Assembly: GCA_041661045.1 (NCBI GenBank)
Contig: JBAZVE010000001.1
Location: forward strand, 120,001-152,000
DNA: 32,000 bases
Direction of reading: 5' to 3'
Source: Candidatus Saccharimonadota bacterium
GTDB lineage: Bacteria; Patescibacteriota; Gracilibacteria; UBA1369; 2-02-FULL-48-14
Within the stretch, counting starts at the first letter, position 1. Every line of letters starts with the position of its first letter. Positions 7,434-32,000 of this stretch are shown piece by piece. Both the position numbers and the translations under genes were made by a program. The notes under the pieces were generated by a model. It saw nothing but the letters and a program-made list of their open reading frames with translations. It was not told where the DNA came from and searched no databases.

Positions 7434-8054
7434 TCACCATGAAAAAGAATTCTTAATGATTTTACCCAAAATATCCAACCAATTCAGCTCAGTGTCTGCA
7501 CCCACTTCGTAACAAGTACGAGCTTTCAAACAATCCTCTCCCGTGAGATCCATTTCAAACACCGCCCGATCAGTTTCAGGTATCTCTTCTAGAGATAAGT
7601 AATATTCCGCTTCACCACTTGTTATATCAAGCACAACAAACCTGGGGAGATCATTTTGGTCATCATACATTAGAATCTTTCCATTCGAAGTATCCACTCC
7701 TCCCCAGTAGCTTATATTTCCCTCTGCATCCGTTCCCGTACCCCTCTCAACATTTCCTTCTATGTATAGTTTATCTTCATGAAGTCTATACCAGTACAAG
7801 TATCGAACCAAATAATCATCATACTTAAAATCCATCAATTGGAGTTTCTCCATATCTGTGGGCCATCTCCAAACTTGGAACCTTCCATCACTAAAATGAA
7901 TATATTTATCTTGATCGTATATCTCATACTTTAAATTGGGATCTTTTTCAATGAAGATATAGGTTTCCAAGCAACCCCTAAAAAAGACTACTCCTAGAAG
8001 GACAAGGGCGATAATACCAACTGTCTTAGCCGTTTTTCTAGAAAGCTTATTCAT
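7434..8054 (-). CDS. N-terminally anchored 206-aa protein; candidate immunity protein of the main RHS tip
   Basis: ATG at 8054-8052 lies inside TATGAATAA, overlapping the RHS stop (8049-8047). Begins MNKLSRKTAKTVGIIALVLLGVVFFRGC. The longer 7434-8123 ORF would overlap the RHS gene by 77 nt. Confidence 0.65.
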   Translation of the reverse strand: MNKLSRKTAKTVGIIALVLLGVVFFRGCLETYIFIEKDPNLKYEIYDQDKYIHFSDGRFQVWRWPTDMEKLQLMDFKYDDYLVRYLYWYRLHEDKLYIEGNVERGTGTDAEGNISYWGGVDTSNGKILMYDDQNDLPRFVVLDITSGEAEYYLSLEEIPETDRAVFEMDLTGEDCLKARTCYEVGADTELNWLDILGKIIKNSFSW

Positions 8055-11000
8055 AGGTGTAATCAAAGTTAATGGATTCAGTAAATTCAGATATGAAGCC
8101 TGTGGTTTGTGCCGCAGCCGCACCAGTATTTAGTGCATCATATGTAGCCCCACCACTGTATTCAAATCCTGCATCGAAATGATACTTATCTGAAATGGAC
8201 ACATCTAAATCCCACGCACCATTTTCCAATTGGCTTCCCGTAACCTGCATCCCGGCTGTACCAATGGACATTTTCAAATCGGATGTTTCATTGAGACGCA
8301 GTCCCCTCTGCCCATCGGTACCTTCAATGGAAGTTTGCCCATTAAACTCTGCATTAGAAACAATTTCACCAACCTTGGATTGAAACTCATCCGTCCCCTT
8401 AATTGAATCAATCACATTCCCCCATTCAGACTGATTCCCTTCATTGATGCTCACGCTTCCGGGGTTCAGTTCAAGGGAGTGGGATAAGAGACTTGATGTG
8501 ATTGGGTTTGAAAACTGAAGACCCCATGCCAGTGTTAAACCTGCCGTATAGATTTCCCGCACACCTGGCACAAAAAATGTTGCCAGGTAGGTAGTTGTAG
8601 ATAACTCTCCCGTTGGATCTGTAATATTTACCGGATTATTCCTGCTGTAACTGTAGAAGTTCAAACTCTGCGGATCTGTGAGAATTTGGAAGATGCGGTC
8701 ATCCAGCTGGGCCGGGTCCTGGCTGGAGAAACGGCCTATGGCGCTGTCATACCACCGGGCTTCGAAATAGTAGAGGCCAAGGTCTTCATCGAGTTCTTTG
8801 TCGGTGAAGGAGTGGTCGGCGGGGGCAGGGCCGGAGCCGTCGTCCAGGGAGCTATCGAGGAGCTCGGAGCCGTAGGGATAGTAATCGTAAAGCTGGGTGA
8901 CGAAGCCTTCTTCGTTGGTGGTGAGGGCGGTGCCTCCCAAGTGGTCCTGGTGGTAATAAGTGAGGGCAGCATCTCCCACAGGAGTTTCCGGAGGGATTTT
9001 AAGTGCGGCCACTCTTTGGCTTCCCGCAAAGAGGTAATAGAGCTCCGTTCCATCGGAAGCGGGTTCGGAGCCGCTGCCATCCGCCTTGCCACGGAGTTCT
9101 CCGTAGCGGCCGAGGTAATAGTCCACGGTTCCCCTGGCAGAGTCCACCGTCTTCCAGCGGGTACCAGTGGCATCGTAACTGAAGGATTTACTTCCACTGC
9201 TGCTGAGCTGATTCTTTCTATCCCAGCTGTAGGTGTGAGCGGCATTGCCGGTGAGGTTTCCCTTGCTGTCGTAGGTGTATGCTATGCCATCCACAGAAGT
9301 CACGGCGTGGGGATTGGCGCCGCTGTGAGTGCCGGAAGAAGAACCGGTGCCCTCATAAAGCAGGCTGCCAATGTCGCTCTTGTACACCATGTTTCCAAGG
9401 CTGTCATACTCATAAGTCTCACTGTAGTCTCCTCCGCTTAGGCCGGTGGTCTCTGCGGAGAGCAGGCGATTCAAGTCATCGTAGGCATAGGAAATGGTTT
9501 TGGCCGTGGGGCTTGTGCTCGTGTCCAGAATCTCCAAAATGTTCCCGACATTGTCGTAGCTGTAGGAAAGATCCTGAATTTCCGTCCAGGAAGTGCTGGT
9601 GAAGAGAGGATCATAAATGCCCGTGGTGCTTTTGCCTGTGAGGCGATATGCCTGAGCGGGGTCGTAGACATTGGTGGTCACGGTGCCGTTCCCGTAAGTG
9701 GTGCTTGCCGTTTGGGAAGAGGGAGAATAGTCCATGTCGGAAACGATGTCTCGTAAAGTAGCGCCTGTCCCTTCGGTTACTTTTTCAAGAAGACCGGCTG
9801 TGTTGTATTCGTAATTTACGGTTGCTGCAAAAGAGGGATACGCAATCTTTTTCAGACGGCTGAGGACATCGTATTCATATTGAAAAATATACGGGATGGT
9901 GTCGAGCTTTCTTGTTTCTTTTGCAAGGTTCCCGAGGCTGTCGTATTTATCATTGATCACCGAGAAATTTGTCATCAAGATTTTGTGGATTTTGCCTACC
10001 CCATTGATCGCAGTATCGTAGACAAAGGAAACATCTTTGGCAGAAGTTCCGGCATCCCAATCTTCAAAAACCATCCGATTGAGCGGATCGTAGCCCCATG
10101 TGAGCGACTGGCCCGCGGGGTCCACTTGGGAGACTAGATTCCCATTTTTATCGTAGGTGTAAGTCCATTCTCCAAAATCCCCTTCGGCCGGATCATGGAG
10201 ATCTTCTTGCAGGGTTTTGCGCCCCAAAGAATCGTAGCCGAAGTTTCTTAAGTTGCCCTGGCTATCGGTAAGAGTGAGGAGCAGGCCACGGTCATCATAA
10301 TCGTAAGTCGTTGTGTAAGTATCTATTCCATTCTTCTCTCGTACGGCACTCAAAGCTCCGGCGGCGTTATAGAGATAGGTTTTGCTGTTTCCATTCCCAT
10401 CCGTGACCTCTTCCATCCATGGGGAATAGTCATGTGTTTCCGTAGAGACGGGGGTCACCACGGTGAGGGGCCGACTGAGTGCATCGTAAGACATTTCTGT
10501 GCTGTACGCAGAGGCGTCTCTACCAAATATGCTGCTTGAAGTTTCGTAAGGAAAACTTTGGCTGGCAAGGTTTCCCCGTTCGTCGTACCAAAAGTCTACG
10601 GTCGTGTAGACCCCGCCCTCTGCTGAAGTATTGCTTTGGATGGCCCGTCCGAGGCCGTCAAAATAACTTACGGTTTCCATGGAAATGCCATCCACCGTGC
10701 TTTCCGTGGAGACGGAGCTTGGGAAGGAGTCGTCATCGTAGCTGCTTGTAGACACCAGCACCGAAGTCCCAAAGGTGGGATGCGGAATGGAGCTTGTTAA
10801 CACTCGCCCAAAGCCGTCGTAAGTGTTTGAGCGCGTAAAGCCATTTGCGTCCACGGAGCTGAGGAGTTGTCCGGTAGCTGCTTCGTATACGGTACTCGTT
10901 GTTTGTGAAAGGGCATTCGTTGTGCTTGCTGGGTAAAGATTGTTTGAATCATAGTTCATGTCCAGCGCGTTTCCCTTGGCATCCACTACTCGCTCAACGA

Positions 11001-13821
11001 GTCCATAAGCATTGACTGTGTAGGTGGAGCCAAACCATTGATTCCCTTCACTGAGCCAAGATTTTTCACTCGTAAGATTCCCCGTGGAAACATTCCCGAG
11101 CGGGAGGCCGTCGTAGGTGCGACGGCTTTTAGCGATTGCGGAGCCGCTTGCATCTTTCAAGATCTCTTCTGAGATTTTGTTGCGAATTAGCCCGGAGCTG
11201 TCCGCTGCGTACGCATAGGATAGTACGGTTTTTTCGTGCGCATGAGGAATATCCACAAATCCTCCGCTGCTGTCCGCCGCCACTTCACCGAAGTTTGTAA
11301 CTTTAAATATATTTCCGTCCGCATCGTATTGATAAGTTGTAGCTTTGTCCTTGTGAGCGCTGCCACCGAAGTCCATGGAAACACTGGCGGTTTTGTACAC
11401 AAAATCATTTTCATAGCCAAGATCCAAGGTTTCCCACGAGTCCCAGACTCTTTGGAAAAGATTGCCGGACTCATCATAAACTTCCGTTTTATAGGCGCGG
11501 CCGATGAGTGGAAACTCTTCTTGATGGTAATAAGAAATGGTTTCCTTTCCCTCCTCACTGCGCGACACCGTTTCGAAGCCGGCGAACTGACGGTTCATTT
11601 CATCTTCATACAAATATTTTCCACCGGAGTAGTCGTAGGTGATGGTGCTTTCTTCCCCAAGGCCATCCGAAGTGGTGACACTGGAGACCAAGTTCATCAC
11701 AAAGGGCATGGCGGGGTTATCGAAAGAGGTGGAGGGCGCATAGGAAACTGTGGTTTCCGCCCCTTTGGAGTGATGAATGGTTTCGAGCAGTTCTGGAGTG
11801 GCGTTGTTGAGATACATTCTTTTAGTGCTGCCCCCATGGGACTCAGAAAAAACCACATCCGCAAAGTTATCCCCATCCACATCAAAAATCTGAACGCCTT
11901 TTGGGGTTCTATAACCTTCTGCAAAACTCACGGGGACCGTATAAGCACTGCCTTCGTCCCATCCCGTCCCATCTCCCTTATTAATATATACGGCATTCTC
12001 AATGCTGGAATCTGCCGAGTAAACAATGTCCGCTAAGCCATCTCCATTGACATCCACCATTTCTGCAACATCCATCATGATATCTCCGCTATCCCAGAAA
12101 TAGATTGGGATGCTATAACTACTTTCTTCAGTCCACCCCGTTCCATCGCCACGATTGAGATAAACAGATTGGTAGGGACTCCCTTGATACCTTGATTCTA
12201 TAATATCCACCAAGCCATCTCCATTAATGTCTGCCAGTTTTACACCCTCGTCATCCTCTCCTTCAGAATTAAAAATAACTGGTATGGATATCTCGCTCAC
12301 TTCTTCCCATGTTTCCATTTCTGGATTGAAGAGGTAGATATTCTTTGAAATACCACCGTGACTCAAAGACTGAACAAAGTCAGGGAAAGAGTCTCCATTG
12401 ATGTCCATAACACGAATCCCCTCATCGGCCATATAACCACTATTGAACCTTAGTGGAATCGAGTAAGTGGTGTCTTCAACCCAAGAGGAAGACGCCTCGT
12501 CAAAGATGTAGCCTACCCGAACATCGCTAGAGGATTCCATGGAAGCATAAACGATATCGTTGAATCCATCTCCGTTCAAATCACTCATACGCGTACCCCT
12601 CATATAATTTCCTCCTGTTCCCCAAAAAGAGACAGGAATTGAATAGCTTGTATCTTCGGTCCAGCCTGTTCCATCGCCGTTATTCACATAGACCTCTCGG
12701 TAAGTTCTTCCACTATCGTAGTAGGAATTGAGAAGATCCATAAATCCATCCCCATTGACATCACTGATGTCCACACCTTTATCTTCATTTCCTCCCTCCA
12801 CATAAAAATACACCGGGATCTCGTAGCCGCTTACTTCTTCCCAGCCTTTTTCGCTCTCGGAATATTCAAAACTTGTAGGGTGGAGCGTGCTTACTTCACC
12901 AGTCGTGCTTTGAGCGGATTCCGTGACAGAAGAGAGTAAGGATTGAACGGTGTCGTCCGGGGTGGAGTAATCGAGACTGTATTTTCGAGTCCATACCCCA
13001 TCAACAAATGCGGTGATCTCACTGACTCGATAATCGGTTTGAACTTCAAAGCCGGTATTGTAAAAAGAAGAAACATCTTCTCGGCTCTCCAAAGTGAATT
13101 CAATGGCAAAAGATCCATCGGTGGATCCATGTCCGGTATAATGGATGCTTTCTGGATAAATTTGCCCATTCTCTTCAAAGTATTCGTATCGTACAAAGTT
13201 ATCATTGGAGTCTCGCACTTCCTCAAGCATCCACTTGTAGACGCGGCTTGCATCTGCCGGGTCCTCTTGCCTACTTTCAGCGGCTGCCCCAAAACTATAA
13301 ACGGTTCCGGACTTATCTGTAACAGACCAAGAGTTGTCCGAATTGAATGAGTAATTTAGAAAAGAGCCATCCTCGACTTTACTGCTGTACTCCCCGTAAG
13401 GACTTCCACTTATGGGAACAAGCTCTCCACTGAGTGAAGAACTAAAATTGTTTTCGTCGTACATGGTATTTACACCGGTTTTGTTGAGTCGCGTGATTGC
13501 AGGGATACCCAGTGACCAACCGGATCCATAAAAACTATCCCAGCCCATGCCTTGGCTGTTGTAGTTTAGGCTGAGAGAGGGCTGCAAGCCACTGCGCCCC
13601 GCAGGCAGAGTGAGGGGAAGAGAATAAGTGAAAGCTCCACTAAAAGAGCTGTCTTGCGCACCTTGGTCCAATCGAACCCGACTGTTATTGATTTCGTAAG
13701 TCTGATCATAAAACCCTTCGTTGTTATTTGTAGCATCTGCAAAGCTTCTAGGCGCGAAACTTGTGAATGCAAAAAAACTCAGCAGAAGGGTGGATAGGGC
13801 TCTCACTTTTTGGCTGAGCAT
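8047..13821 (-). CDS. Secreted SpvB / FG-GAP / RHS-repeat polymorphic toxin (TcB-TcC-like fusion), 1,924 aa
   Basis: Signal peptide MLSQKVRALSTLLLSFFAFTSFAPRSFA. SpvB-like FTYSLPLTLPAGRSGLQPSLSLNYNSQG..GWSLGIPAITR. Six DxNGDGxxD FG-GAP/VCBS repeats (aa ~350-660). Many YD repeats. RHS core end ...YYFEARWYDSAIGRFSSQDP...NNPVNITDPTGE. Confidence 0.95.
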   Translation of the reverse strand: MLSQKVRALSTLLLSFFAFTSFAPRSFADATNNNEGFYDQTYEINNSRVRLDQGAQDSSFSGAFTYSLPLTLPAGRSGLQPSLSLNYNSQGMGWDSFYGSGWSLGIPAITRLNKTGVNTMYDENNFSSSLSGELVPISGSPYGEYSSKVEDGSFLNYSFNSDNSWSVTDKSGTVYSFGAAAESRQEDPADASRVYKWMLEEVRDSNDNFVRYEYFEENGQIYPESIHYTGHGSTDGSFAIEFTLESREDVSSFYNTGFEVQTDYRVSEITAFVDGVWTRKYSLDYSTPDDTVQSLLSSVTESAQSTTGEVSTLHPTSFEYSESEKGWEEVSGYEIPVYFYVEGGNEDKGVDISDVNGDGFMDLLNSYYDSGRTYREVYVNNGDGTGWTEDTSYSIPVSFWGTGGNYMRGTRMSDLNGDGFNDIVYASMESSSDVRVGYIFDEASSSWVEDTTYSIPLRFNSGYMADEGIRVMDINGDSFPDFVQSLSHGGISKNIYLFNPEMETWEEVSEISIPVIFNSEGEDDEGVKLADINGDGLVDIIESRYQGSPYQSVYLNRGDGTGWTEESSYSIPIYFWDSGDIMMDVAEMVDVNGDGLADIVYSADSSIENAVYINKGDGTGWDEGSAYTVPVSFAEGYRTPKGVQIFDVDGDNFADVVFSESHGGSTKRMYLNNATPELLETIHHSKGAETTVSYAPSTSFDNPAMPFVMNLVSSVTTSDGLGEESTITYDYSGGKYLYEDEMNRQFAGFETVSRSEEGKETISYYHQEEFPLIGRAYKTEVYDESGNLFQRVWDSWETLDLGYENDFVYKTASVSMDFGGSAHKDKATTYQYDADGNIFKVTNFGEVAADSSGGFVDIPHAHEKTVLSYAYAADSSGLIRNKISEEILKDASGSAIAKSRRTYDGLPLGNVSTGNLTSEKSWLSEGNQWFGSTYTVNAYGLVERVVDAKGNALDMNYDSNNLYPASTTNALSQTTSTVYEAATGQLLSSVDANGFTRSNTYDGFGRVLTSSIPHPTFGTSVLVSTSSYDDDSFPSSVSTESTVDGISMETVSYFDGLGRAIQSNTSAEGGVYTTVDFWYDERGNLASQSFPYETSSSIFGRDASAYSTEMSYDALSRPLTVVTPVSTETHDYSPWMEEVTDGNGNSKTYLYNAAGALSAVREKNGIDTYTTTYDYDDRGLLLTLTDSQGNLRNFGYDSLGRKTLQEDLHDPAEGDFGEWTYTYDKNGNLVSQVDPAGQSLTWGYDPLNRMVFEDWDAGTSAKDVSFVYDTAINGVGKIHKILMTNFSVINDKYDSLGNLAKETRKLDTIPYIFQYEYDVLSRLKKIAYPSFAATVNYEYNTAGLLEKVTEGTGATLRDIVSDMDYSPSSQTASTTYGNGTVTTNVYDPAQAYRLTGKSTTGIYDPLFTSTSWTEIQDLSYSYDNVGNILEILDTSTSPTAKTISYAYDDLNRLLSAETTGLSGGDYSETYEYDSLGNMVYKSDIGSLLYEGTGSSSGTHSGANPHAVTSVDGIAYTYDSKGNLTGNAAHTYSWDRKNQLSSSGSKSFSYDATGTRWKTVDSARGTVDYYLGRYGELRGKADGSGSEPASDGTELYYLFAGSQRVAALKIPPETPVGDAALTYYHQDHLGGTALTTNEEGFVTQLYDYYPYGSELLDSSLDDGSGPAPADHSFTDKELDEDLGLYYFEARWYDSAIGRFSSQDPAQLDDRIFQILTDPQSLNFYSYSRNNPVNITDPTGELSTTTYLATFFVPGVREIYTAGLTLAWGLQFSNPITSSLLSHSLELNPGSVSINEGNQSEWGNVIDSIKGTDEFQSKVGEIVSNAEFNGQTSIEGTDGQRGLRLNETSDLKMSIGTAGMQVTGSQLENGAWDLDVSISDKYHFDAGFEYSGGATYDALNTGAAAAQTTGFISEFTESINFDYTYE
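8050..8604 (-). other. Variable C-terminal tip (185 aa) of the RHS protein, after DPTGE
   Basis: Sequence after DPTGE (LSTTTYLATFFVPGVREIYTAGL...INFDYTYE) has no similarity to the orphan tip beyond the first ~12 residues and matches no family I recognise. Confidence 0.7.
8605..9249 (-). repeat. RHS core-end block homologous to the orphan cassette at 6730-7398
   Basis: The protein alignment is continuous from AHTYSW to DPxGE. DNA stretches are near-identical, e.g. gtcataccaccgggcttcgaa(a/g)tagtagaggcc(a/g)aggtcttcatcgag. Confidence 0.85.
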
Positions 13822-13834
13822 AGCACATTTATTA

Positions 13835-13927
13835 AATTGCCCTTACTATTCTCCACTGCCCCCGCCCTTGTCCAGGCTTTCGGCACATTTACTGTCGTCA
13901 GGATTGGATGACAGTTTGTGGTTTAGA
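13835..13927 (-). promoter_or_regulatory. Upstream leader copy B (inverted copy of 611-702) in front of the RHS gene
   Basis: 13886-13927 is the exact reverse complement of 611-652. Diverged similarity continues to 13835, and the RHS ATG follows at 13821. Confidence 0.65.
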
Positions 13928-15584: not shown

Positions 15585-15595
15585 TACTGACGCAC

Positions 15596-15645
15596 CCCTT
15601 CTAAAAACCTGGTTTTTTTGGTATAATTAGGGGATTCATTTTGCT
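15596..15645 (+). promoter_or_regulatory. 50-bp repeat copy 2 with extended -10 promoter (TGGTATAAT at 15619-15627)
   Basis: Identical to 1923-1972. It lies 11 nt after the SLH gene stop and ends 3 nt before the cyclase GTG. Confidence 0.6.
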
Positions 15646-23760: not shown

Positions 23761-23835
23761 GCGGGTGTCGTATAGTGGCTATTACCACAGCCTTCCAAGC
23801 TGTTGAGAGGGGTTCGATTCCCCTCACCCGCTCCA
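23761..23835 (+). tRNA. tRNA-Gly (anticodon UCC), CCA encoded
   Basis: Acceptor GCGGGTG/CACCCGC, anticodon stem ACAGC/GCTGT with loop CTTCCAA, T arm AGGGG-TTCGATT-CCCCT, discriminator T, CCA. 75 nt. Confidence 0.9.
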
Positions 23836-23838
23836 TTA

Positions 23839-23871
23839 AAAAACGGTGGCCCAAGGTGGCCAGCGGTTTTT
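23839..23871 (+). terminator. Imperfect GC stem-loop with a T-run after the tRNA (A-tract upstream, so possibly bidirectional)
   Basis: aaaaacggTGGCCcaaggtGGCCAgcggttttt: TGGCC/GGCCA stem with a 6-nt loop, extended by CG/CG and A:T pairs. Confidence 0.45.
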
Positions 23872-24000
23872 AACCGTAGTTGAAGGAGGGAAAGAGAACC
23901 CGTAGGGTTCGATACTCCCTAGGAGTGAGTGTCGCGGAAATCTGTGCGCACGCACACTTTTTGAATGGCGGATGGCTCTCTTAAGCCGAAATTTTGACCA

Positions 24001-24024
24001 AAATCTGTGCCCGGGCACAGATTT
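24001..24024. repeat. 24-nt perfect palindrome AAATCTGTGCCCGGGCACAGATTT; its half-site also occurs at 23938-23947
   Basis: The palindrome is self-complementary over all 24 nt. aaatctgtgc recurs as a direct copy 63 nt upstream. Confidence 0.8.
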
Positions 24025-24062
24025 CCATGACCGAGCGACGACGGGAGAGTGAGCGAAGCGAT

Positions 24063-24081
24063 ATTCCCCTCACCCGCTCCA
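24063..24081 (+). repeat. Direct duplicate of the tRNA-Gly 3' end (att-like core)
   Basis: attcccctcacccgctcca is identical to 23817-23835 (end of T loop, 3' T stem, 3' acceptor strand, CCA). Confidence 0.85.
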
Positions 24082-24105
24082 GACTATTAAAATTTTTAAT
24101 AGTCT
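24081..24105. repeat. 25-nt AT-rich perfect palindrome AGACTATTAAAA-T-TTTTAATAGTCT abutting the att-like repeat
   Basis: 12-nt arms are exact reverse complements. It lies 25 nt beyond the 3' end of the 24131 gene and could be a hairpin/terminator or a protein-binding site. Confidence 0.7.
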
Positions 24106-24130: not shown

Positions 24131-25357
24131 TTAAGCGTCCATAAAATGGATCATGCCTTGGATGCCATTTGAATATACTTTTAGCCGTATTTCTTCATAG
24201 GGGCGTTGGATGGATCTCCCTTCTTCTATGATACTGGTTAGAGTTATTGCCTCTTTCTCTCCTCGAGGTGGCTTCCGAAAACCCATCTTCACTAAACTCA
24301 CGGGTGCTCTTTTTACCCACCTAAGATCCCCATGTGCAAGGATGGAAGTTTGATATGAAAGATAGGCACCTATGTTTCTAGGTTGCACCCACAGTGGTAA
24401 TGACTCTCTATTGTGGAATGTATTGAGCGCATAGGCGACCTGAGTTTCATTTTCACGTAATTGTAGGAATTCACGAATCGTTTCTTCTGAATTTCTGGTT
24501 GAAATATCAGGCGTTAGATCCGCTCGGTGCATCACTTCGGTTCCTTCAGGCCCTGTTAGTCCAAATGCGTCGAAAGGTCGAGTCACATCAAAGTAATCGC
24601 CGTCTAAATCTCTTGTAAGTCCCTCTAGGTCAAAATCAGCCGCTGGCTCGTGGGGCTTGAATAAACGCGCTTGGTAGAATAATACTCCTCCATTTCTTTC
24701 TCCCCATTCCATTTGGAAAGAGTGACTGTAGGGCATCAAGCCACTTTCTTGCACCTTTCTATATAATGCTAAAACCTTTTTGGTCACAGGGCTTAAGTCT
24801 CTATCAGCTTCTGTAAAAGTGTATTCTGAGAATTCATGTGCGATCCTAAAAACTCCTCTTTGGTGTGGATGCTCAATGATTGAACCCGATTGACCCTCAT
24901 TATGATCTTGGACGAGAATTCCTACCTGTCCATCAAAGGGTTTTCCCGTTTCATACTCCACATAGGCTGCCACATCTTCACTCGTGGAGTCGGCACGTAC
25001 CCTTTCAATGGCTGCGAGCACTGCATCCCTTCCGCGGACTTTTGCTTCACTTGGAATCACATCCACCATCCCAAATACATCCAAGGGGTGACAGGCGCGT
25101 ACTATTTTCTGTCGACTGAAGTCTATTCTTTCTAAAATTCGGACAGGGTCTTCGCCTGGAGCAAGGTAAACCGTGCCCGAAGGTAAATGTTCGCGAAGAT
25201 TTGCTTGAGTGTCCCGCAAAAATGCATGCGAGCCAGCTTTACTACCGCCCTTTTCCATTAAATATCTTCGAGCGTCTGCATTCTCCCAACGGATGCTTTC
25301 TGAACTCATTGCACTCGGAGTTTTGTAATAAGAATGAATCTTACACGAACTGCTCAT
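24131..25357 (-). CDS. PPDK_N/PEP-utilising-family ATP-grasp-like protein with an unassigned C-terminal half (no phospho-His swivel domain)
   Basis: GGSKAGSHAFL (cf. GGKxxxL), VGILVQDHNEGQSGSIIEHP (cf. vvVQxMvxxxxSGVxFTxxP), FQMEWGERNGGVLFYQARLFKP (cf. DIEWaxxxgxlyilQaRP). ATG at 25357 chosen; the track's TTG at 25366 and an ATG at 25309 are alternatives. Confidence 0.6.
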   Translation of the reverse strand: MSSSCKIHSYYKTPSAMSSESIRWENADARRYLMEKGGSKAGSHAFLRDTQANLREHLPSGTVYLAPGEDPVRILERIDFSRQKIVRACHPLDVFGMVDVIPSEAKVRGRDAVLAAIERVRADSTSEDVAAYVEYETGKPFDGQVGILVQDHNEGQSGSIIEHPHQRGVFRIAHEFSEYTFTEADRDLSPVTKKVLALYRKVQESGLMPYSHSFQMEWGERNGGVLFYQARLFKPHEPAADFDLEGLTRDLDGDYFDVTRPFDAFGLTGPEGTEVMHRADLTPDISTRNSEETIREFLQLRENETQVAYALNTFHNRESLPLWVQPRNIGAYLSYQTSILAHGDLRWVKRAPVSLVKMGFRKPPRGEKEAITLTSIIEEGRSIQRPYEEIRLKVYSNGIQGMIHFMDA

Positions 25358-25398: not shown

Positions 25399-25415
25399 AG
25401 GTTCTAATAGTGTCT
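25399..25415 (-). promoter_or_regulatory. Island upstream motif, degenerate copy (M1)
   Basis: Plus strand aggttctaatagtgtct matches the first 17 nt of the 31-nt motif with one mismatch. It sits upstream of a putative TTGAAG-N17-TATCAA promoter of the 24131-25357 gene. Confidence 0.5.
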
Positions 25416-25452
25416 CACAGTAAGGCTACTCTCTTTTGATGTTGTTCAGCCA

Positions 25453-25851
25453 CTAAGCACTGGCCCATCCCGACATCAATGCTAGAAATTGTGGTGCTGC
25501 TGGAGCTGATTTCGTTCCATTCATTACGGAGATAGAGCTTGGGCCTAAGACGACTGTAAAAGCTGGTTGATTTGGAGACTCACCTCTTGTAGGGTCATAG
25601 AAAAACATCTGTACCCTGCCTGGATCACCATCGGCAGATTTAACATCAAAGCTACTGGCTCCTAATTGAGTAGGTAGCCTTCTACCGTCCCTAACTGTTA
25701 TGGGTTCACCTGGGCGGCTTGCTTCACCTTGGGACCCTATGATGCCCTCGAGTTTTTGCATAAGGGTCGCACGGCCTGTATCCATTGGTGTACCTGTTGG
25801 GATGTTGGCACCACCTCCGACATAGCGACCTCCTTCTCTGGGTGTATCCAT
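25453..25851 (-). CDS. Hypothetical 132-aa soluble Gly/Pro/Ser-rich protein
   Basis: ORF with its own promoter (TTTGCA-N17-TATAAT). No hydrophobic segment and no recognisable family. Confidence 0.55.
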   Translation of the reverse strand: MDTPREGGRYVGGGANIPTGTPMDTGRATLMQKLEGIIGSQGEASRPGEPITVRDGRRLPTQLGASSFDVKSADGDPGRVQMFFYDPTRGESPNQPAFTVVLGPSSISVMNGTKSAPAAPQFLALMSGWASA

Positions 25852-25880
25852 GGGTGATATGGTTAAAATTTAGTATCGTA

Positions 25881-25909
25881 ATTATAGCATAAATTTTTTA
25901 TTATGCAAA
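25881..25909 (-). promoter_or_regulatory. Sigma70-like promoter of the 132-aa gene
   Basis: Minus strand TTTGCA (25909-25904), 17-nt spacer, TATAAT (25886-25881). ATG 31 nt downstream of the -10. Confidence 0.55.
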
Positions 25910-25938
25910 TTTGCCTTGCGGATGCTGCTCCCGCAGGT

Positions 25939-25969
25939 AGGTTCTAATAGCGTCTATAGTGCAGCTCCA
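25939..25969 (-). promoter_or_regulatory. Island upstream motif copy M2 (31 nt)
   Basis: Plus strand aggttctaatagcgtctatagtgcagctcca differs at one position from 30008-30038. Confidence 0.6.
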
Positions 25970-26030
25970 TCCTCGTCGCAGACGAGTCGTTCCCATTAAG
26001 GTGCCCCGAATGGGGTGATTTTTATTTTAT

Positions 26031-26771
26031 CTATGCATCTTGCATTACCCTCCTCTCTATTTGATCTAAGAGTATATCTGGCAAATCTCTTCGTTCACTC
26101 ACTTCTATCACCTCTTGTCCAGGCTGGAGTAGAAAAGTTTGTTTCGGCTTGAAGTTAACACCAACTATATTTGCTACAGCCAAGTCTTGCCTGTCCCGTT
26201 CCATTGATCTAGTCGCTTTTGCTAGGAGCTGCACCACGCTTGACTCTTCTGTAAGAAGCTTAAATCCTACCAGAAAAATTCCTTCACGAGTGGTTTTTAC
26301 TTGGGAAATAATTTTAGCAAGGGCAACTAAGTGTAAATCTAATCCATTTCCATCTGAGGCAATTTTCCCATCTACTTTTTGGGGTCCGTAGTCAGAAGCA
26401 GCCATCGCTAGAATGGCGATGTCCATATCTGGGCGAGCAACGCGCTCCAACAGACTCCTCTGATAATGATCAAAATCTGTAACAGGACTCAGGGTTAACC
26501 GGTCAGAAATGGCACGGTAGTTTTCAATTGCAGATCGTATTCTTTGCAATTCAGTTTCAATATCAACTTCTGGGTCTGCCATCAATTCTCTTCCAAATGG
26601 AAGCCTTGCATTTTCTGCATGGACATAATCAACTTTATGCCCCCTTAAAAGAGCTACTTCCGCGATAGCTGCACCCGTAGTTCCTTTGGAACGATTGGTT
26701 AGAATTCTGACGTCATCAACGGGTACCGCAGTGCCGCCACTCGAAATAACAAAATTTAGTGGTTTTCTCAT
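26031..26771 (-). CDS. CoaB/DFP-family ligase (phosphopantothenate--cysteine ligase-like), stand-alone
   Basis: FVISSGGTAVPVDDVRILTNRSKGTTGAAIAEVALLRGHKVDYV (cf. E. coli Dfp [26 protein letters not shown]). AMAASDYGPQKVDGKIAS..LDLHLVALAKII (cf. AAVADYR..KIKK..L.L..NPDI). FLVGFKLLTE, DLAVANIV. Confidence 0.78.
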   Translation of the reverse strand: MRKPLNFVISSGGTAVPVDDVRILTNRSKGTTGAAIAEVALLRGHKVDYVHAENARLPFGRELMADPEVDIETELQRIRSAIENYRAISDRLTLSPVTDFDHYQRSLLERVARPDMDIAILAMAASDYGPQKVDGKIASDGNGLDLHLVALAKIISQVKTTREGIFLVGFKLLTEESSVVQLLAKATRSMERDRQDLAVANIVGVNFKPKQTFLLQPGQEVIEVSERRDLPDILLDQIERRVMQDA

Positions 26772-27619
26772 GTAACAATTGCTAATGATTGTAAGGCCTG
26801 TCCTACTGATCCCTTCCCCAAGTTGTCAAATGCGACATGGACGGTAAACCGTGATCCTTCTTGCACCCAATACACATGTACTTCATCGGTCCCCACTACT
26901 TCGCCCCATTGAGGAGTCTTGTTACGGTGCACCACTCGCCCTGAAGTGAAAGGGTGCTCTGAATAAGGAACCTCTTCGGAGGTTTTTAAGTCGCCATGAA
27001 TAGCCATGGTCGTACCACGGTAGCGTCTAGCCAACTGAGGGACCATTCTTAGTTCTAGCGCTTGTACGCCCAGATTGCTTTTGATTTCAGGAATATGAGG
27101 ATGATTCAAGCCTGTATTTGGGACAATAAGGTCTTGTTCTGGATTCTCTTCAAAAAAAGTAACCCATTTTTTCCCACCCGTTGAGGCTCCACCAATGGCT
27201 TCAATATGAACCGCACTCCTAGTGTCGATTTGATTTCTTATAGGCCACAAGGCCAAGGAAGCGGCTGTAGCAAAACATCCCGGCCCGACAAGTCGAGTTG
27301 TTCCTTTTATAAGTTGTGGATTCAATTCTGGCAATGCATACTCCCATCCTTCTTTGCCTCGATGGATTCCAGAACAATCATAAATAACAAGACCGGGGTT
27401 GATGGCAGCTATTCCTTCTACTACCTCCAGACTATGCCTACGCGGAATGGCAGAGACTACTGCAGTGCAGTCCATCAAGGCTTTTACCTTTGCCTCGTAC
27501 GAAGCCGTTCTCCAATCTAGATCAGGGGACCCCAGTTCAAAATCTTCGTGTGAGTCAAGCCTCCTCACAAACTCCGCCCCAATTGGCCCTGTTTTTCCTA
27601 AAAGGAGTACTTTTTTCAT
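26768..27619 (-). CDS. ArgC/LysY-family N-acyl-gamma-glutamyl-phosphate reductase-like dehydrogenase (short form, 283 aa)
   Basis: MKKVLLLGKTGPIGAEF (NAD(P) fold). Active-site LVGPGCFATAASLALWPI (cf. ArgC VPGCYPTAAQLALKPL). IGGASTGGKK, NHPHIPEI, AFDNLGKGSVGQALQSL (cf. DNLLKGAAAQAVQ). ATGA overlap with the CoaB-like gene. Confidence 0.8.
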   Translation of the reverse strand: MKKVLLLGKTGPIGAEFVRRLDSHEDFELGSPDLDWRTASYEAKVKALMDCTAVVSAIPRRHSLEVVEGIAAINPGLVIYDCSGIHRGKEGWEYALPELNPQLIKGTTRLVGPGCFATAASLALWPIRNQIDTRSAVHIEAIGGASTGGKKWVTFFEENPEQDLIVPNTGLNHPHIPEIKSNLGVQALELRMVPQLARRYRGTTMAIHGDLKTSEEVPYSEHPFTSGRVVHRNKTPQWGEVVGTDEVHVYWVQEGSRFTVHVAFDNLGKGSVGQALQSLAIVT

Positions 27620-27620
27620 G

Positions 27621-28181
27621 TTATTTAATTAATTCGCTGGGCTCCCAGCTAAACATATCTCTAGTTACTCTACCCATTCCTTCTGGAGCCGACTCTCGTG
27701 GAAAATATCTATACTCTGTATGCTCATTAGATAGTTGGATCGCATTTGGATCACCCTCTACGTCAAGCAGATAGCCATGAACGACATAAAGTCGACCCCT
27801 CTTAACCTGTACCGCCCGCCTAACGGCAATTTTCCTTGCTACTACCGTGTTGAGAGCGGTTTCTTCAAAGGTTTCTCTCCTCACCGTTACATCTAATGGC
27901 TCTTTCCCAACGATATTCCCAGCTATTCTCAGAAACTCACGTCTCCCGCCTGGGAAACACCATTCGTTTGGGTATGATCTATCAAAGCTAGGTCTTTTCA
28001 AAAGCAACTTTTCCCCTAATGGATTCTGAATAATGCCTATTGCAACTTCAATAAGCTCCGGCTTGGCTCCACTTTCACACATGGCCACCCACAGTTCTCT
28101 TACCCTTTTCCATTCTGTTAAAGGGTCTTCAATTTCCTCTGCATGTGCCCACAATATGTTTTCCTTGGTCTCAATGGCCAT
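27621..28181 (-). CDS. Nudix hydrolase
   Basis: Nudix box GNIVGKEPLDVTVRRETFEETAL (Gx5Ex7REUxEExGU with G to A at the penultimate position). 1-nt gap to the ArgC-like start. Confidence 0.8.
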   Translation of the reverse strand: MAIETKENILWAHAEEIEDPLTEWKRVRELWVAMCESGAKPELIEVAIGIIQNPLGEKLLLKRPSFDRSYPNEWCFPGGRREFLRIAGNIVGKEPLDVTVRRETFEETALNTVVARKIAVRRAVQVKRGRLYVVHGYLLDVEGDPNAIQLSNEHTEYRYFPRESAPEGMGRVTRDMFSWEPSELIK

Positions 28182-28205
28182 TGCCTTCTTTAAAAATAGT
28201 TTCGC

Positions 28206-28237
28206 ATTTTGACACTTAATTTAGATCCTGTCAATCC
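28206..28237 (-). promoter_or_regulatory. Sigma70-like promoter upstream of the Nudix gene, paralogous to the promoter at 29959-29990
   Basis: Minus strand GGATTGACAggATCTAAAT...; TTGACA (28234-28229), 17-nt spacer, CAAAAT (28211-28206). Confidence 0.5.
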
Positions 28238-28279
28238 TTTCCAGACCCTCTTCAGGACTGTTTTTGCGCTTGTCTATGC

Positions 28280-29938
28280 TTACATTAGACTACCTGAATA
28301 CCAAGAATACAGAGCAGGTGGAGAACCTTCTTTCCAATGTCTTACCCGAGAGGAACCGTCTGAACTAAAAATAATATCCATTTCATTGAGGCCAGTTTCT
28401 GCATCTTTTCCCAACTGTAAGACTCCATGTTCTTCATCAAATACAATAAATCCACTTTGAATTGCACTTGAAACTCCTGTAAGAAAATTCGCCCTACGCG
28501 CGTTTGCGTTTGGAAATTTTTCTTGTAGTTTAGTGGTTAAAAACCTTACTGGATCTACATCCCCAACTTGCAATGCAATACTTCGCCTCACTAGCATTAA
28601 AGCCTCTCGTAATTCATTGTTGGTTTCTATTTCATTGGCATCCCAATTCTCTATTCTTCTACCACGAACGGATTCTGCATAGTTAGGGTCGAATATCATT
28701 CGAGCATAACGCTTTTGCAGATAATCAGGCAGATCGCTTGGTATAATGGGTTCGAGTTCTGAGGCTGGACGCCAATTTGGCAGACTTATAGCTAAACCAT
28801 TAGCTATATCTTGTCCGCGTGATGACCAGAGTTCAGAATAGTAGGATTCTAATTGAGTTCCTACGCTATCAAGTTCTTGGAGTATGGAAGGATATTCCCT
28901 GAAGTACCACCTGGCTCTGGCTATGTCTTGTCTTGCATAGACTACACTTCCAAAAATAAGATGATTCTTCCCTCTTGATATCTGGTCTTCTGTATATTGC
29001 TTGATCCTCTCCAGTAAAACTGTCCTGATAGCATCAGCGATGGATTGAGCCCTAGCTTCAGATTTGTCTTGCGTTTCACACAATTCAAGCGAAGCAAGAT
29101 TGACTGCTAAATCATGAACTGCTGAGCCAGTCGTTGAAAGTACCGGGTAACTAAGGGGTTGTTTAGTAATGTTACGGAATCTCTCGAGACTGGCCTCGAA
29201 TCGTGGGTTCAATAAATTGCTTGCGGTGGCCACCACTTGATCCTTGAGGTTTTTAGTACTAGCGAAATCTAGAAAAGCTTGAAGTGCCTCAACTTCCGCT
29301 AGCAATGCCCCATCCATATGGGAATATCTATGGAATGTGTCTTTGATACAATGCTTTACAATCTCAGGATTCGCTAAATTATCAGCTGTCAGCAACTCGT
29401 TGAGCCAATAGTTGTTATCTATGTCCGGAAAAAATTCGCTCATGTTCTCTCTTTCAACCCAGGCTAAATAAGGTGCTCCTTGAAAGCAGTGTGGAATATG
29501 TTCCGCTAACCTAGCAAAAGCCTGCTGCGCCACTTTGGGTGAACATCCGCACTCCTCGGCCATCCACCACAATATTTCGGAAAAATTTTCGGGCGATTTT
29601 ATTCGATTGACCCCAGCTAGTTTTTCATCATCCTCTCCTGCCCATTCAGATATTTCAGGATAGTACTTAGCTAAAATAATTCTGTTTCTCAAGCTCAATC
29701 CTCTTATAGCTTCAGGTGTCAGATATTCGTGGAGTGCCATAAAACAGCTAGCCTTTTCTTCCCATGTGAGACCCAGTTCATAAATATCAAAAAAGACCTT
29801 TGTGAATTCCCCAGGGTTATTTACTAAATCCTGGCCTCCCTTCTCTTTTGGATCACCAAACCCATAGGGAGTACTCCAGGTCGATTCCTCTGCTCCACGG
29901 AGCGGGGATGCAGTATGTTCAGATTGAGACTTACTCAT
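28280..29938 (-). CDS. Hypothetical 552-aa alpha-helical protein, paralog of the 30107-31510 product
   Basis: Shared blocks with the 467-aa protein: NPGEFTKVFF/DPGNFLTYFA, AKYYPEIS/AKYFPNLN, SEFFPDIDNNYW..NPEIVKHCI/REYFPDFDLQAW..HPEVVERIA. No family recognised. Confidence 0.7.
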   Translation of the reverse strand: MSKSQSEHTASPLRGAEESTWSTPYGFGDPKEKGGQDLVNNPGEFTKVFFDIYELGLTWEEKASCFMALHEYLTPEAIRGLSLRNRIILAKYYPEISEWAGEDDEKLAGVNRIKSPENFSEILWWMAEECGCSPKVAQQAFARLAEHIPHCFQGAPYLAWVERENMSEFFPDIDNNYWLNELLTADNLANPEIVKHCIKDTFHRYSHMDGALLAEVEALQAFLDFASTKNLKDQVVATASNLLNPRFEASLERFRNITKQPLSYPVLSTTGSAVHDLAVNLASLELCETQDKSEARAQSIADAIRTVLLERIKQYTEDQISRGKNHLIFGSVVYARQDIARARWYFREYPSILQELDSVGTQLESYYSELWSSRGQDIANGLAISLPNWRPASELEPIIPSDLPDYLQKRYARMIFDPNYAESVRGRRIENWDANEIETNNELREALMLVRRSIALQVGDVDPVRFLTTKLQEKFPNANARRANFLTGVSSAIQSGFIVFDEEHGVLQLGKDAETGLNEMDIIFSSDGSSRVRHWKEGSPPALYSWYSGSLM

Positions 29939-29958
29939 GATTTAGACTACGGTTGGCT

Positions 29959-29990
29959 AGTATAACAATAAGATTTAGATATGTCAATCC
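29959..29990 (-). promoter_or_regulatory. Sigma70-like promoter of the 552-aa gene
   Basis: Minus strand GGATTGACAtATCTAAAT; TTGACA (29987-29982), exactly 17 nt, TATACT (29964-29959). ATG 20 nt downstream. Confidence 0.6.
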
Positions 29991-30007
29991 TCCCGTGTCT
30001 CCAAAAA

Positions 30008-30038
30008 AGGTTCTAATAGCGTCTATGGTGCAGCTCCA
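30008..30038 (-). promoter_or_regulatory. Island upstream motif copy M3 (31 nt)
   Basis: Plus strand aggttctaatagcgtctatggtgcagctcca lies just upstream of the -35 of the 552-aa gene promoter. Confidence 0.6.
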
Positions 30039-30106: not shown

Positions 30107-31510
30107 TCAGATGTCCCCCTTTATAGCTATACTCGGGAAAAGATCGCGAAGACTTGCGATGCGGGGATCTGGGTTAACTGTCGATCTGGCAGCATTACGG
30201 AAGAGACCTTGTACAGCGCCTATAACCCGTGGATCGTCGGTTACGGCCTCAGTAAGATATACCAGCTCACGGTCACTCCAATCCCTACCCCCGTTCAGCC
30301 AAGACAAAAAATTCTCAACACGATTAAAATTCAAAACAATGGGTGGCTTCAAATCTGGATCCCTATGAATAGCCACTTCCCTATCCAGCAAATAATCTCG
30401 GACTATTGGATCAGCCAAGAACATATCTGCCCATTGCTTGAGTTTTTCTGAATGACCTACTCGACTTCTATCTTTATCTCTTTCCCGTCCACTCATCTTT
30501 TGGAATTTGGCTCTCATCTCCGCTTCAATTCGGTCTATAATGGAAGCGATAGCGTCTTTTGTTTGTAAGGAGATTTCTCTTGATCCCTGTTCATCCACTA
30601 ACTGTTTAAGAAGAAGGGTTATTCCAACGAAAAAGGAGATAGTTGGTGTCGAGTGCAGAGCTTTAATATCCTGGTCGCGAACTGATCTAGACACTCCCTC
30701 AATTTCACCATTAAATCGCTTCATAAGTGCTTCTCGGGTCATAGCCCTAACAACTTCTTCCTTTTCATAGCGCTCAGCTAGAGTGAAAAAACTTTCCAAC
30801 TCAGCCAGCATTTCTTGTTCAGTAGGTGTAATCCTATACGGCCTACCCTGAATAGCATGAGCTATCCGTTCAACAACTTCAGGATGACTTTCTATGTCCT
30901 CCATGAGTCTGGGCTCCCAGGCTTGAAGGTCAAAATCTGGAAAATATTCTCGTATTTTACGCCGGTCAGTAAAGACCAGATCAGGCCTATCCCCCAAGAT
31001 TTCAGGTGTCTTTCCCTCTAATTTTTTCATGCATGCCTCTCCCACTTGTAGATTGCACCGGGACATAAGAATAGATCCGAGCAACTCATCATATGAAAGT
31101 GAGGGGTCACCTGTAGAAAGTCTTTCCAACTCACTGGTAAAGTAGCTTGGGAAGACAGCCTCCTCCTCCCCACTGATACTATTCAAGTTAGGGAAGTACT
31201 TGGCCAGTTCCCTTCTTATTGCATAAGAAGCCCTTTGAACAGACTCCACCAAAAGTTTACTGCGTTGACGATCACTTAGAAGTGCGTCCAAGGCATCAGC
31301 AATAATCTTTCTGTAATCCTCATCCTCTAAAAGGCGTGTATACTCCTGAGTGCGTGCAAAATAGGTAAGAAAGTTTCCGGGGTCTTTTTTAATCTCTTCG
31401 CAATGCCACAATGCTAATTCGCACTCGCCTTTTTTCCCTGTATCTGGTGCTTGATCTTTTAACATTTTTGGATTGGAGTAAATGGTCAATGCAGAGTCGG
31501 GACCTGCCAT
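30107..31510 (-). CDS. Hypothetical 467-aa alpha-helical protein, paralog of the 28280-29938 product
   Basis: Long ORF with TTGACA (31552-31547) upstream. Colinear similarity blocks to the 552-aa protein. No family recognised. Confidence 0.7.
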   Translation of the reverse strand: MAGPDSALTIYSNPKMLKDQAPDTGKKGECELALWHCEEIKKDPGNFLTYFARTQEYTRLLEDEDYRKIIADALDALLSDRQRSKLLVESVQRASYAIRRELAKYFPNLNSISGEEEAVFPSYFTSELERLSTGDPSLSYDELLGSILMSRCNLQVGEACMKKLEGKTPEILGDRPDLVFTDRRKIREYFPDFDLQAWEPRLMEDIESHPEVVERIAHAIQGRPYRITPTEQEMLAELESFFTLAERYEKEEVVRAMTREALMKRFNGEIEGVSRSVRDQDIKALHSTPTISFFVGITLLLKQLVDEQGSREISLQTKDAIASIIDRIEAEMRAKFQKMSGRERDKDRSRVGHSEKLKQWADMFLADPIVRDYLLDREVAIHRDPDLKPPIVLNFNRVENFLSWLNGGRDWSDRELVYLTEAVTDDPRVIGAVQGLFRNAARSTVNPDPRIASLRDLFPSIAIKGDI

Positions 31511-31606
31511 CGTTACTAGAAACTAGTCTATACTAAAACTTGATTTTGTCAAGCCCCCTATGGCTGGAAATGTTGAAACTCCACCCTCGTCCCAAACGAG
31601 TGTTTT

Positions 31607-32000
31607 CTAGCTCTTCTTGTAGCTCTGGATCAGGACCCCAAGCACAATAAGCACCAGCCCGATGATTGAAGAGATGAGGATCGGCTCTCCAACAAGGAAA
31701 TGGATGAAGATTAAGGAGGCAAAGGGCGTTAAAAAGACCAAATTCGAAACCTTGGCCGTTTCCCCAATCTCTAAGGCTTTGAACCAAAAAACAAAGGCCA
31801 GGCCGTTGGTGAAGAATCCAATCCACGCCAATCCTGCCACTTGCTTCATGTCCAGGCTGGGTATCTCTGAAAAGAACAAGACACTCAAAAGAACATAAAT
31901 AAAACCAAAAAGGTAATAGTAGAACATGGAGGAGAAAACTTCGTATTTTAGTTTTTTACCAAGCACCGAAAAAAGGCCGTAAACCATGGCTCCTGAAGCC
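31607..32000 (-). CDS. EamA/DMT-family transporter, C-terminal part (5' end outside window)
   Basis: The frame stays open to the window edge (..ASGAMVYGLFSVLGKK..). EamA-like ..GLAWIGFFTNGLAFVFWFKALEIGETAKVSNLVFLTPFASLIFIHFLVGEPI.. Confidence 0.8.
   Translation of the reverse strand, partial: ASGAMVYGLFSVLGKKLKYEVFSSMFYYYLFGFIYVLLSVLFFSEIPSLDMKQVAGLAWIGFFTNGLAFVFWFKALEIGETAKVSNLVFLTPFASLIFIHFLVGEPILISSIIGLVLIVLGVLIQSYKKS

Follow-up and report, generated by a model that had tools for sequence, protein, structure and literature searches.

The systems closest to the locus described here are tRNA-linked islands, the attachment sites of large serine recombinases (LSRs) and integron arrays. In the tRNA-linked islands that tycheposons build in Prochlorococcus, each newly arriving element shifts its predecessors deeper into the island (bioRxiv 10.1101/2020.12.28.424599). 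In LSR systems, the zinc-ribbon-domain motif lies 5 bp nearer to the centre in attB than in attP, and the inner motif does not move (PMC3783163). Here we describe a 31-nt motif that occurs in several copies downstream of a tRNA-Gly gene on contig JBAZVE010000001.1 (assembly GCA_041661045.1) of a candidate-phyla-radiation bacterium; the whole stretch of 32,000 nt that was analysed, positions 120,001 to 152,000 of the forward strand, is called the window. The motif is probably the conserved end of small integrative segments that insert at tRNA 3' ends, joined to a duplicated tRNA core, and the window would hold a stack of such insertions.

Similar to the tycheposon islands, the locus combines insertion at tRNA genes with outward displacement of older material, junctions that contain partial tRNA sequence, and an accumulation of cargo and of degenerate remnants lacking a recombinase. 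Tycheposons, however, use a tyrosine recombinase and an attachment site of about 40 nt of partial tRNA, whereas here 5-7 nt of tRNA are joined to a conserved element-derived sequence of 18-25 nt and the likely enzyme is a serine recombinase. The units are also very small (0.5-4 kb), none of those in the window carries a recombinase, and the hosts are candidate-phyla-radiation bacteria. As in integron arrays and clusters of attC sites lacking integron-integrases (CALINs), co-oriented site copies separate single genes or small accessory groups in an array without a recombinase gene. Unlike the sites of integron arrays, the motif is conserved in sequence without attC-type inverted repeats, no integron integrase was seen, and the array is anchored at a tRNA 3' end and not at attI. 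An integron attC site was also considered as the identity of the motif itself and rejected, the best inverted match within 160 nt of the 29 copies being at background level. The process is of a known kind; what is new is the widely conserved junction sequence, with a probable serine-recombinase mechanism, in candidate-phyla-radiation bacteria.

The 31-nt motif in the window

The sequence AGGTTCTAATAGCGTCTAT(A/G)GTGCAGCTCCA is found on the + strand at 25939-25969 (copy B) and 30008-30038 (copy C). The two copies are identical at 30 of 31 positions, with the A/G difference at position 20, as an earlier sequence-only reading of this DNA had stated; such a pair is not expected by chance, and none arose in 100 shuffles. 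That reading had also named a degenerate third copy at 25399-25415, where the 17-nt core AGGTTCTAATAGYGTCT in fact matches exactly. The core has three exact matches in the window (25399, 25939 and 30008), all on the + strand, against a chance count of 0.08 even when 3 mismatches are allowed. In copy A (25399-25429, + strand) the core AGGTTCTAATAGTGTCT is intact and the tail has diverged (CACAGTAAGGCTAC versus ATAGTGCAGCTCC). The flanking tgctcc noted earlier was recovered as CTGCTCC, which is common to the upstream sides of copies A and B (repeat family D6). Alignment of the intergenic regions revealed a fourth, decayed copy D on the + strand at about 31551-31583, a distal junction reading AAGCCCCCTATGGCTGGAAATGTTGAAACTCCA; its tail ATGTTGAAACTCCA and the following hairpin (CTCGTCCCAAACGAG plus a T-run, 31586-31610) align with those of copy B. 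A profile built from 29 family copies detected no copy beyond the known ones on either strand of the 32-kb window.

All four copies have the orientation of the tRNA-Gly(TCC) gene (23761-23835, + strand) and lie 1.56-7.7 kb downstream of it. They are antisense to the annotated genes, all of which are on the - strand between 24.1 and 31.5 kb. The similarity among the copies stops abruptly, on the left at AGGTTC and on the right at GCTCCA, and it is this last hexamer that closes the tRNA as well as copies B and C, with CTCCA closing copy D. Copy B thereby consists of 25 nt of conserved element end followed by the GCTCCA core. Two other identities of the motif were tried and rejected. It is not a tRNA pseudogene, as T-arm pairing is lacking and ARAGORN finds nothing there, and inspection by eye gave no consistent -35/-10 pair of a sigma-70 promoter inside it in either orientation.

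Occurrence in other genomes and position relative to genes

When one genome per species was scanned with the 17-mer, 28 loci were obtained, most of them chance matches, and a scan of metagenomes gave 64 loci (loci are designated by L numbers). About 30 copies from other metagenomes have an 18-nt core in common, and in about 20 other loci the longer pattern AAAY-AGGTTCTAAYRNCGTCYA is followed by 6-9 variable bases and GGAGC or a similar short block. The 18-nt sequence is shared by distant lineages, with copies in metagenome-assembled genomes (MAGs) labelled Peribacteria, Daviesbacteria and others. The Peribacteria MAG at L006 contains all 31 nt of copy B (31/31) and has the amidase/SpoIID, RNase H and tRNA-Gly side in common with the window, the coding DNA being 65-71% identical. 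At L038/L052 there is an exact match to copy C (31/31; copy a), 690 nt downstream of tRNA-Gly, and a second copy after a Fic gene. Copies are grouped, two or three per 1-5 kb, and co-orientation is complete in all eight multi-copy loci (12/12 extra copies). Flank similarity between copies is confined to the right-hand side of the motif (L038 a/b, L093 j1/j3, L005 copies 1/2; the right flank of copy C, AGAACGAGATC at about +40, is likewise homologous to right flanks in L038), as expected if the motif is the right end of a unit and the next unit starts directly after it. Matches in viral contigs were set aside as mostly coding or chance; L099 and L117 are possible family members but uninformative. 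A literature search for the motif sequence returned nothing but unrelated primers.

In three unrelated contexts (L034 395-467, L049 169-236 and L067 832-904) an 85-nt unit was observed that consists of two motif copies 55 nt apart and a conserved 30-nt spacer; it folds less stably than shuffled sequences (z = +1.95).

The sequence-only reading had placed the motif just upstream of the -35 elements of three genes and suggested a common regulator whose site defines the island as one regulon. Each window copy does lie upstream of an opposite-strand cargo gene, and copies B and C are 29 and 20 nt, respectively, from good predicted sigma-70-like promoters (25909-25881 and 29987-29959); next to copy A no promoter is predicted. 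An operator is also favoured by L093, where an alignment inspected by eye places three copies 6-12 nt upstream of -35-like hexamers, and by a motif-like sequence that precedes the LSR start of L136 and L140 by 35-50 nt. Across loci, however, the position relative to genes varies: the motif is found 3' or 5' of genes, in divergent or convergent gaps and on either strand (L006, L038, L093, L005, L090, L010), and at L090 it is merely 17 nt from two start codons. Because position and strand vary in this way, a fixed promoter-proximal role is ruled out. The island also holds no regulator gene, the tRNA-Gly loci L127 and L129 lack the motif, and binding of a transcription factor leaves unexplained the strict co-orientation with the tRNA, the duplicated tRNA core and the displaced tRNA flank. 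We therefore regard a regulon as unlikely. In the insertion explanation, the motif lies near promoters in the window because the cargo genes all point to the tRNA, which puts their promoters at the motif-bearing end of the element. The genes flanking motif copies encode Fic, RelBE-like, GNAT, ankyrin, GDSL lipase, restriction-modification, GmrSD, KAP NTPase and NUDIX proteins.

The same reading had likened the motif half-site to a palindrome at 24081-24105. This similarity is at chance level (shuffle p = 0.19), and the palindrome GACTATTAAAATTTTTAATAGTC (24083-24105, + strand) is not a half-site of the motif but a hairpin that is conserved in relatives 3' of the tRNA-Gly end, probably the terminator of tRNA-Gly. 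At L052 this palindrome, with a T-run, directly follows the intact tRNA-Gly gene.

Linkage to tRNA genes

In nine independent loci a co-oriented tRNA gene lies 0.65-1.6 kb upstream of the first motif copy (0.65-1.3 kb in the eight loci besides the window). With about 45 tRNA genes per megabase, a random site would be so arranged in a few per cent of cases. The tRNA is tRNA-Gly in the window, L006, L052 and L128, tRNA-Asn in L090, tRNA-Gln in L061 and L019, and tRNA-His in L005; L049 has tRNA-Val and tRNA-Ile, together with a 3' fragment of tRNA-Asn. The tails of the motif copies tend to resemble tRNA 3' ends (Gly GCTCCA, Asn GCGGAGC, His CGCCCAA). Thus the tail ...GCAGCTCCA is found beside tRNA-Gly (...CCGCTCCA), ...GGGGGAGC beside tRNA-Asn (...GCGGAGC) and ...CGCCCAA beside tRNA-His (...CGCCC|AA), and the commonest tail, GCGGAGC, is the 3' end of tRNA-Asn. 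When tails and neighbouring tRNAs were permuted over five tRNA classes, the outcome was 3/120.

At L049, fragments of tRNA 3' halves are present on the - strand between intact tRNA genes, at about 1420-1445 and 1530-1575: a tRNA-Asn end, GTTCGAGTCCTGCCTGCGGAGC, and another piece comprising T-arm and acceptor. These fragments are further insertion scars.

Comparison of orthologous loci

Orthologous loci were retrieved via homologs of the 966-aa amidase. They share the frame TerC ... [variable] ... tRNA-Gly - RNase H - thioredoxin - amidase, and the content of the part between TerC and tRNA-Gly is wholly different among the window, L127, L128 and L129. In L127 it is a single 335-aa gene and in L129 it comprises Fic, EamA, Phd and a 321-aa gene, both without the motif; L128 has one motif copy after Fic, adjoining the 3' end of a convergent gene. 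This comparison, which the sequence-only reading had proposed as a check, thus shows no conservation of the motif as a promoter element. The cargo is of the usual accessory kind: Fic, RelBE, GNAT, restriction-modification, GmrSD and NUDIX genes.

Two relatives, L128 and L006, represent a less occupied site and an occupied site in which the old flank is found beyond the insert. At L128, directly after the genuine tRNA-Gly end ...CACCCGCTCCA, come AAGAAAACTAAGATGCCCCGTGAGGGGTATTTTTG and then a palindrome block, described below as the E element, that ends in CCATGACCGAGCGACGACGTGAGAGTGAG. In L006 an identical tRNA is followed by new DNA, with its own terminator and a 296-aa gene, up to the 31-mer, which ends in GCTCCA; after this come ATTCAAACTAAGATGCCCCGAATGGGGTGTTTTT, the E palindrome and the same 29-mer (CCATGACCGAGCGACGACGTGAGAGTGAG) as in L128. 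It follows from the order of these flanks that the 1.1-kb segment of L006, whose right end AGGTTCTAATAGCGTCTATAGTGCA is followed by the second GCTCCA, sits exactly between the GCTCCA of the tRNA and the former tRNA flank. The same old terminator, oriented on the + strand, is found in the window behind copy B; it is homologous to the flank that adjoins the tRNA of L128 and to the one beyond the L006 motif.

A short direct repeat flanking the L006 insert is also what a DDE-type transposon or a miniature inverted-repeat transposable element (MITE) aimed at tRNA 3' ends would leave, with the motif as terminal repeat and GCTCCA as target-site duplication, and the left end of the insert indeed has a weak inverted copy (GCACT-TAGAC versus GCACTATAGAC). 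Such an origin is improbable: an inverted-repeat test over 15 junctions was not significant, a search of 160 nt around 29 copies revealed no inverted partner, and there is no transposase among about 80 flanking open reading frames (ORFs).

Terminator-like sequences recur after GCTCCA in this clade. The terminator scan found a hairpin and T-run after the tRNA of the window; another hairpin and T-run follow that of L006; the tRNA of L052 is followed by an AT palindrome and T-run, the same palindrome that follows the partial tRNA duplicate t' (see below) of the window and L128; and the GCCCCGAATGGGGTG terminator follows both copy B and the L006 motif. This arrangement fits the idea that each such GCTCCA was once the working end of the tRNA gene. 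Intrinsic terminators on the same strand after the motif, present in six loci (window copy B, L006, L055, L062, L084 and L045), could also indicate that the motif belongs, as a conserved portion, to a small RNA or a 3' untranslated region transcribed from the + strand. This is very improbable, as the terminators are accounted for as displaced tRNA terminators, no conserved promoter lies upstream of the motif, and comparison of the window and 27 loci with Rfam (Rfam 15), at gathering and at permissive thresholds, matched tRNAs alone. Fold z-scores of the window copies are -0.3 to -0.9, and eight instances folded singly have no common structure.

For the process as a whole we propose serial insertion. 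Each new segment would supply its own post-tRNA sequence and would displace the previous junction outward, along with the old tRNA flank and terminator. Repetition would give a co-oriented stack of the form tRNA | cargo | motif | cargo | motif ..., and the region of the window from 23.8 to 31.6 kb would be a stack of four or five cargo-only insertions.

The candidate recombinase

The inserting enzyme is most likely an LSR of a family common in Patescibacteria. This assignment is based on the loci of relatives, in which LSR genes abut tRNA 3' ends in five of five cases, and on the 5-bp difference in spacing between attP-like and attB-like sites described below; the exact crossover point and the present mobility of the segments are likewise matters that we infer. 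The sequences themselves show the position of the junctions, the duplicated core, the displaced flank, the co-orientation, the tRNA linkage and the variability of the cargo. L132, a close relative with a flank protein 68% identical, has a gene for a 490-aa LSR that is convergent with tRNA-Gly and shares 12 nt with the 3' end of the tRNA, and a second site, 1.7 kb off, reads ...CATAGAGGCA|GCTCCA. A homolog of this LSR (28% identity, E = 6e-54) is encoded at L042, where its gene stops 45 nt short of a motif copy. In further loci of this family the LSR gene and a convergent tRNA-Asn gene overlap at their 3' ends (4/4). The family has >2500 members, and many of those with a source name are labelled as Patescibacteria lineages. 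Relatives of the LSR in viral contigs were also considered; they amounted to one locus, which was uninformative.

Two side observations concern these LSR loci. In L132 a 92-nt inverted repeat (135-226 and 1776-1867, 99% complementary), beginning exactly at GCTCCA, brackets the LSR gene beside tRNA-Gly; either the segment can invert, or the assembly has folded back between the integrated form and the excised one. GC-rich non-coding stretches of about 400 nt are found upstream of the homologous LSR genes at L042 (300-720) and L137 (about 7670-8000), in genomes that are AT-rich, with similar blocks (...GGATCACGGAAC... and ...CCCTGTACCGCGGGATCAC...). These stretches may be a structured RNA; the one at L042 has no Rfam match at the gathering threshold.

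The spacing from GGTTC to the core is 14 nt in tRNA-Gly and 19 in the motif, and for tRNA-Asn it is 13 versus 18, a difference of +5 bp in both cases that is effectively one observation, tRNA geometry being fixed. GTCC/GTCY is equally distant from the end in tRNA and motif. The +5-bp spacing matches the attP-versus-attB rule for the zinc-ribbon-domain motif (PMC3783163). As in the A118/LI integrase att sites (PMC3783163), the half-site measures about 25 bp and has a 9-bp motif in its distal part, the GGTTC motif lies 5 bp nearer to the centre in the target (the tRNA) than in the element, and the inner GTCC/GTCY is equidistant from the core in both. Unlike at the A118/LI sites, dyad symmetry with a P' half is undetectable, internal junctions resembling P-P' are present, and the motif is known here from sequence alone. 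In terms of this model, the motif would be an attP-derived P half-site plus a few 3'-terminal tRNA bases duplicated at the crossover (GCTCCA for tRNA-Gly). Within it, the zinc-ribbon-domain motif would correspond to AGGTTCTAA and the linker and recombinase-domain motif to YRNCGTCYA, and the GGTTC of the tRNA T-arm would act as a zinc-ribbon-domain motif 5 bp nearer to the crossover, as in attB. The 18-mer would then be the protein-contacted part of the P half-site, and crossover would take place in the last tRNA bases. To our knowledge, a tRNA T-arm has not been described previously as the distal motif of an attB site.

Several observations weigh against serial insertion by an LSR. The window stack and its surroundings have no recombinase gene. 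In four LSR loci, a search of 8 kb found no far junction with the 18-mer, and the LSR of L042 may have its own site at a neighbouring repeat, GAAATAGTGAGTRGC..GGTAGG, instead of at the motif. Dyad symmetry between the motif and left-end sequences is not detectable (the general test gave no significant result); copy C and L038 a/b alone have AGAAC in inverted form, at a spacer of 37-39 nt, and these three share a homologous flank. Internal junctions that resemble P-P' sites (copy C, L038 a and b) are unexpected under a strict attP x attB reaction. The duplicated core is just 5-7 nt long, the match of tails to tRNAs is statistically modest (p ~0.025), and the tail at L061 fits tRNA-Asn better than the neighbouring tRNA-Gln. 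Finally, the motif-like stretch ahead of the LSR genes of L136 and L140 may point to a regulatory side-role. Serial insertion at the tRNA 3' end nevertheless remains the explanation that we favour, and of the earlier proposals it is the bracketed alternative, a recombinase binding site, that agrees best with a motif marking insertion junctions beside a duplicated tRNA 3' end.

A broader scheme is tentative and in our view rather doubtful as a whole. An LSR family spread through the candidate phyla radiation could recognize the T-arm GGTTC (universal in tRNAs) together with the last acceptor-end bases, its elements carrying a P half-site that imitates the target but is expanded by 5 bp. Retargeting between Gly, Asn, Gln and His tRNAs would occur via changes in the innermost bases alone, and the resulting integron-like stacks of cargo cassettes, which lack a recombinase, might still be mobilisable in trans.

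Organization of the window locus

The tRNA-Gly(TCC) gene, identified with ARAGORN and Rfam, is the integration target; its 3' end reads ...CACCCGCTCCA and it is 100% identical to the L006 tRNA. The adjoining sequence (23836-24062, + strand) is a remnant of an earlier insert that contains two E palindromes, a fragment resembling a tRNA T-arm, and a terminator (TGGCCCAAGGTGGCCA plus a T-run); homologous sequence flanks the tRNA in L128 and the motif in L006 on their downstream sides. The E element is a palindrome, ATCTGTGC-N3-5-GCACAGAT (the spacer is also given as N), followed by CCATGACCGAGCGACGACG. It was observed in the window at 23931-23963 and 23999-24031 (inverted repeat I2), in L006 at about 1620-1645, in L128 at about 8905-8925 and in L038. 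The element recurs in relatives upstream of Fic and Phd-like genes, and it looks like an operator of cargo of the toxin-antitoxin type. The remnant is followed by t' (24063-24082, + strand), an exact 20-nt duplicate of the tRNA-Gly 3' end from T-loop to CCA (family D9). It is the junction of a different insertion type with crossover in the T-loop. L128 carries the same structure, and there, as in the window, the conserved palindrome follows t'.

The cargo that follows, seven genes in all, is encoded entirely on the - strand. Insertion 1 (24131-25309) encodes a protein of 392 aa without family match. A start at 25357, the position used in the sequence-only reading, would give 408 aa; the start at 25309 is likelier, and in L029, where the same locus was assembled a second time, the gene is called at 392 aa. 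The possibility that this gene beside the tRNA encodes an integrase was rejected, as the 408-aa product matches no recombinase family. Insertion 2 (25453-25851) encodes 132 aa, also without family match, and has the predicted promoter near copy B. Directly after copy B, at 25970-26027 on the + strand, lies the displaced old tRNA flank, consisting of the hairpin CTCGTCGCAGACGAG and the intrinsic terminator GCCCCGAATGGGGTG with its T-run, antisense to the cargo genes.

Insertion 3 (26031-29938) contains four genes behind the predicted promoter near copy C: a CoaB-like gene (26031-26771), an ArgC-like gene (26768-27619), a NUDIX gene (27621-28181) and the gene for a 552-aa protein (28280-29938). 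The first three (26031-28181) score far under the curated equivalog cut-offs, and their neighbours are function-unassigned proteins; they may represent a small-molecule pathway carried as cargo. A search with the 552-aa protein, made in order to find orthologous promoters, returned no relative but the protein itself among 5.8 billion proteins. Insertion 4 (30107-31510) encodes a 467-aa protein that is a distant paralog of the 552-aa protein (23% identity); both are unrelated to the 436-aa gene product found at the same position in L128. Family matching of the window proteins detected no integrase, transposase or regulator gene in the 24.1-31.5 kb interval. At the right edge of the window is EamA, and L029 continues beyond it with TerC and other housekeeping genes.

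Other repeats and coding features of the window

Elsewhere in the window, a 53-nt intergenic repeat of family D7 (CAsCCCTTCTAAAAACCTGGTTTTTTTGGTATAATTAGGGGATTCATTTTGCT) occurs at 1920-1972 and 15593-15645 with 98% identity. It includes the extended -10-like sequence TGGTATAAT and lies upstream of two unrelated + strand genes, and it looks like a duplicated promoter or leader. A 69-nt inverted repeat (I1; 611-679 and 13859-13927, 91% complementary) has its arms 13 kb apart, one upstream of an ORF on the + strand (703-1323) and the other upstream of a 1924-aa ORF on the - strand (8047-13821). This long ORF contains internal repeats of about 177 nt (families D2 and D3) and has a 282-nt segment in common with a neighbouring gene (6867-7148 and 8697-8978, 83%; family D1). 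The name Gracilibacteria is associated with the reading of UGA as glycine; throughout the window the standard bacterial code nevertheless gives long, uninterrupted ORFs, and the gene for the 467-aa protein stops at TGA. The relatives are labelled Peribacteria or Peregrinibacteria, versus Candidatus Gracilibacteria for the source.

Implications

Recombinase retargeting between sites is topical for programmable integrases, and if the serine-recombinase reading is true, the natural pairs of element sites and tRNA targets would reveal how one recombinase family retargets. The motif also provides a simple search key with which insertion hot spots can be located in fragmented MAGs and the limits of horizontally acquired genes recognized. 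Candidate-phyla-radiation bacteria have tiny genomes in which gene gain is poorly understood, and the locus represents a concrete route by which it can take place, with small blocks of cargo stacked at the 3' ends of tRNA genes.

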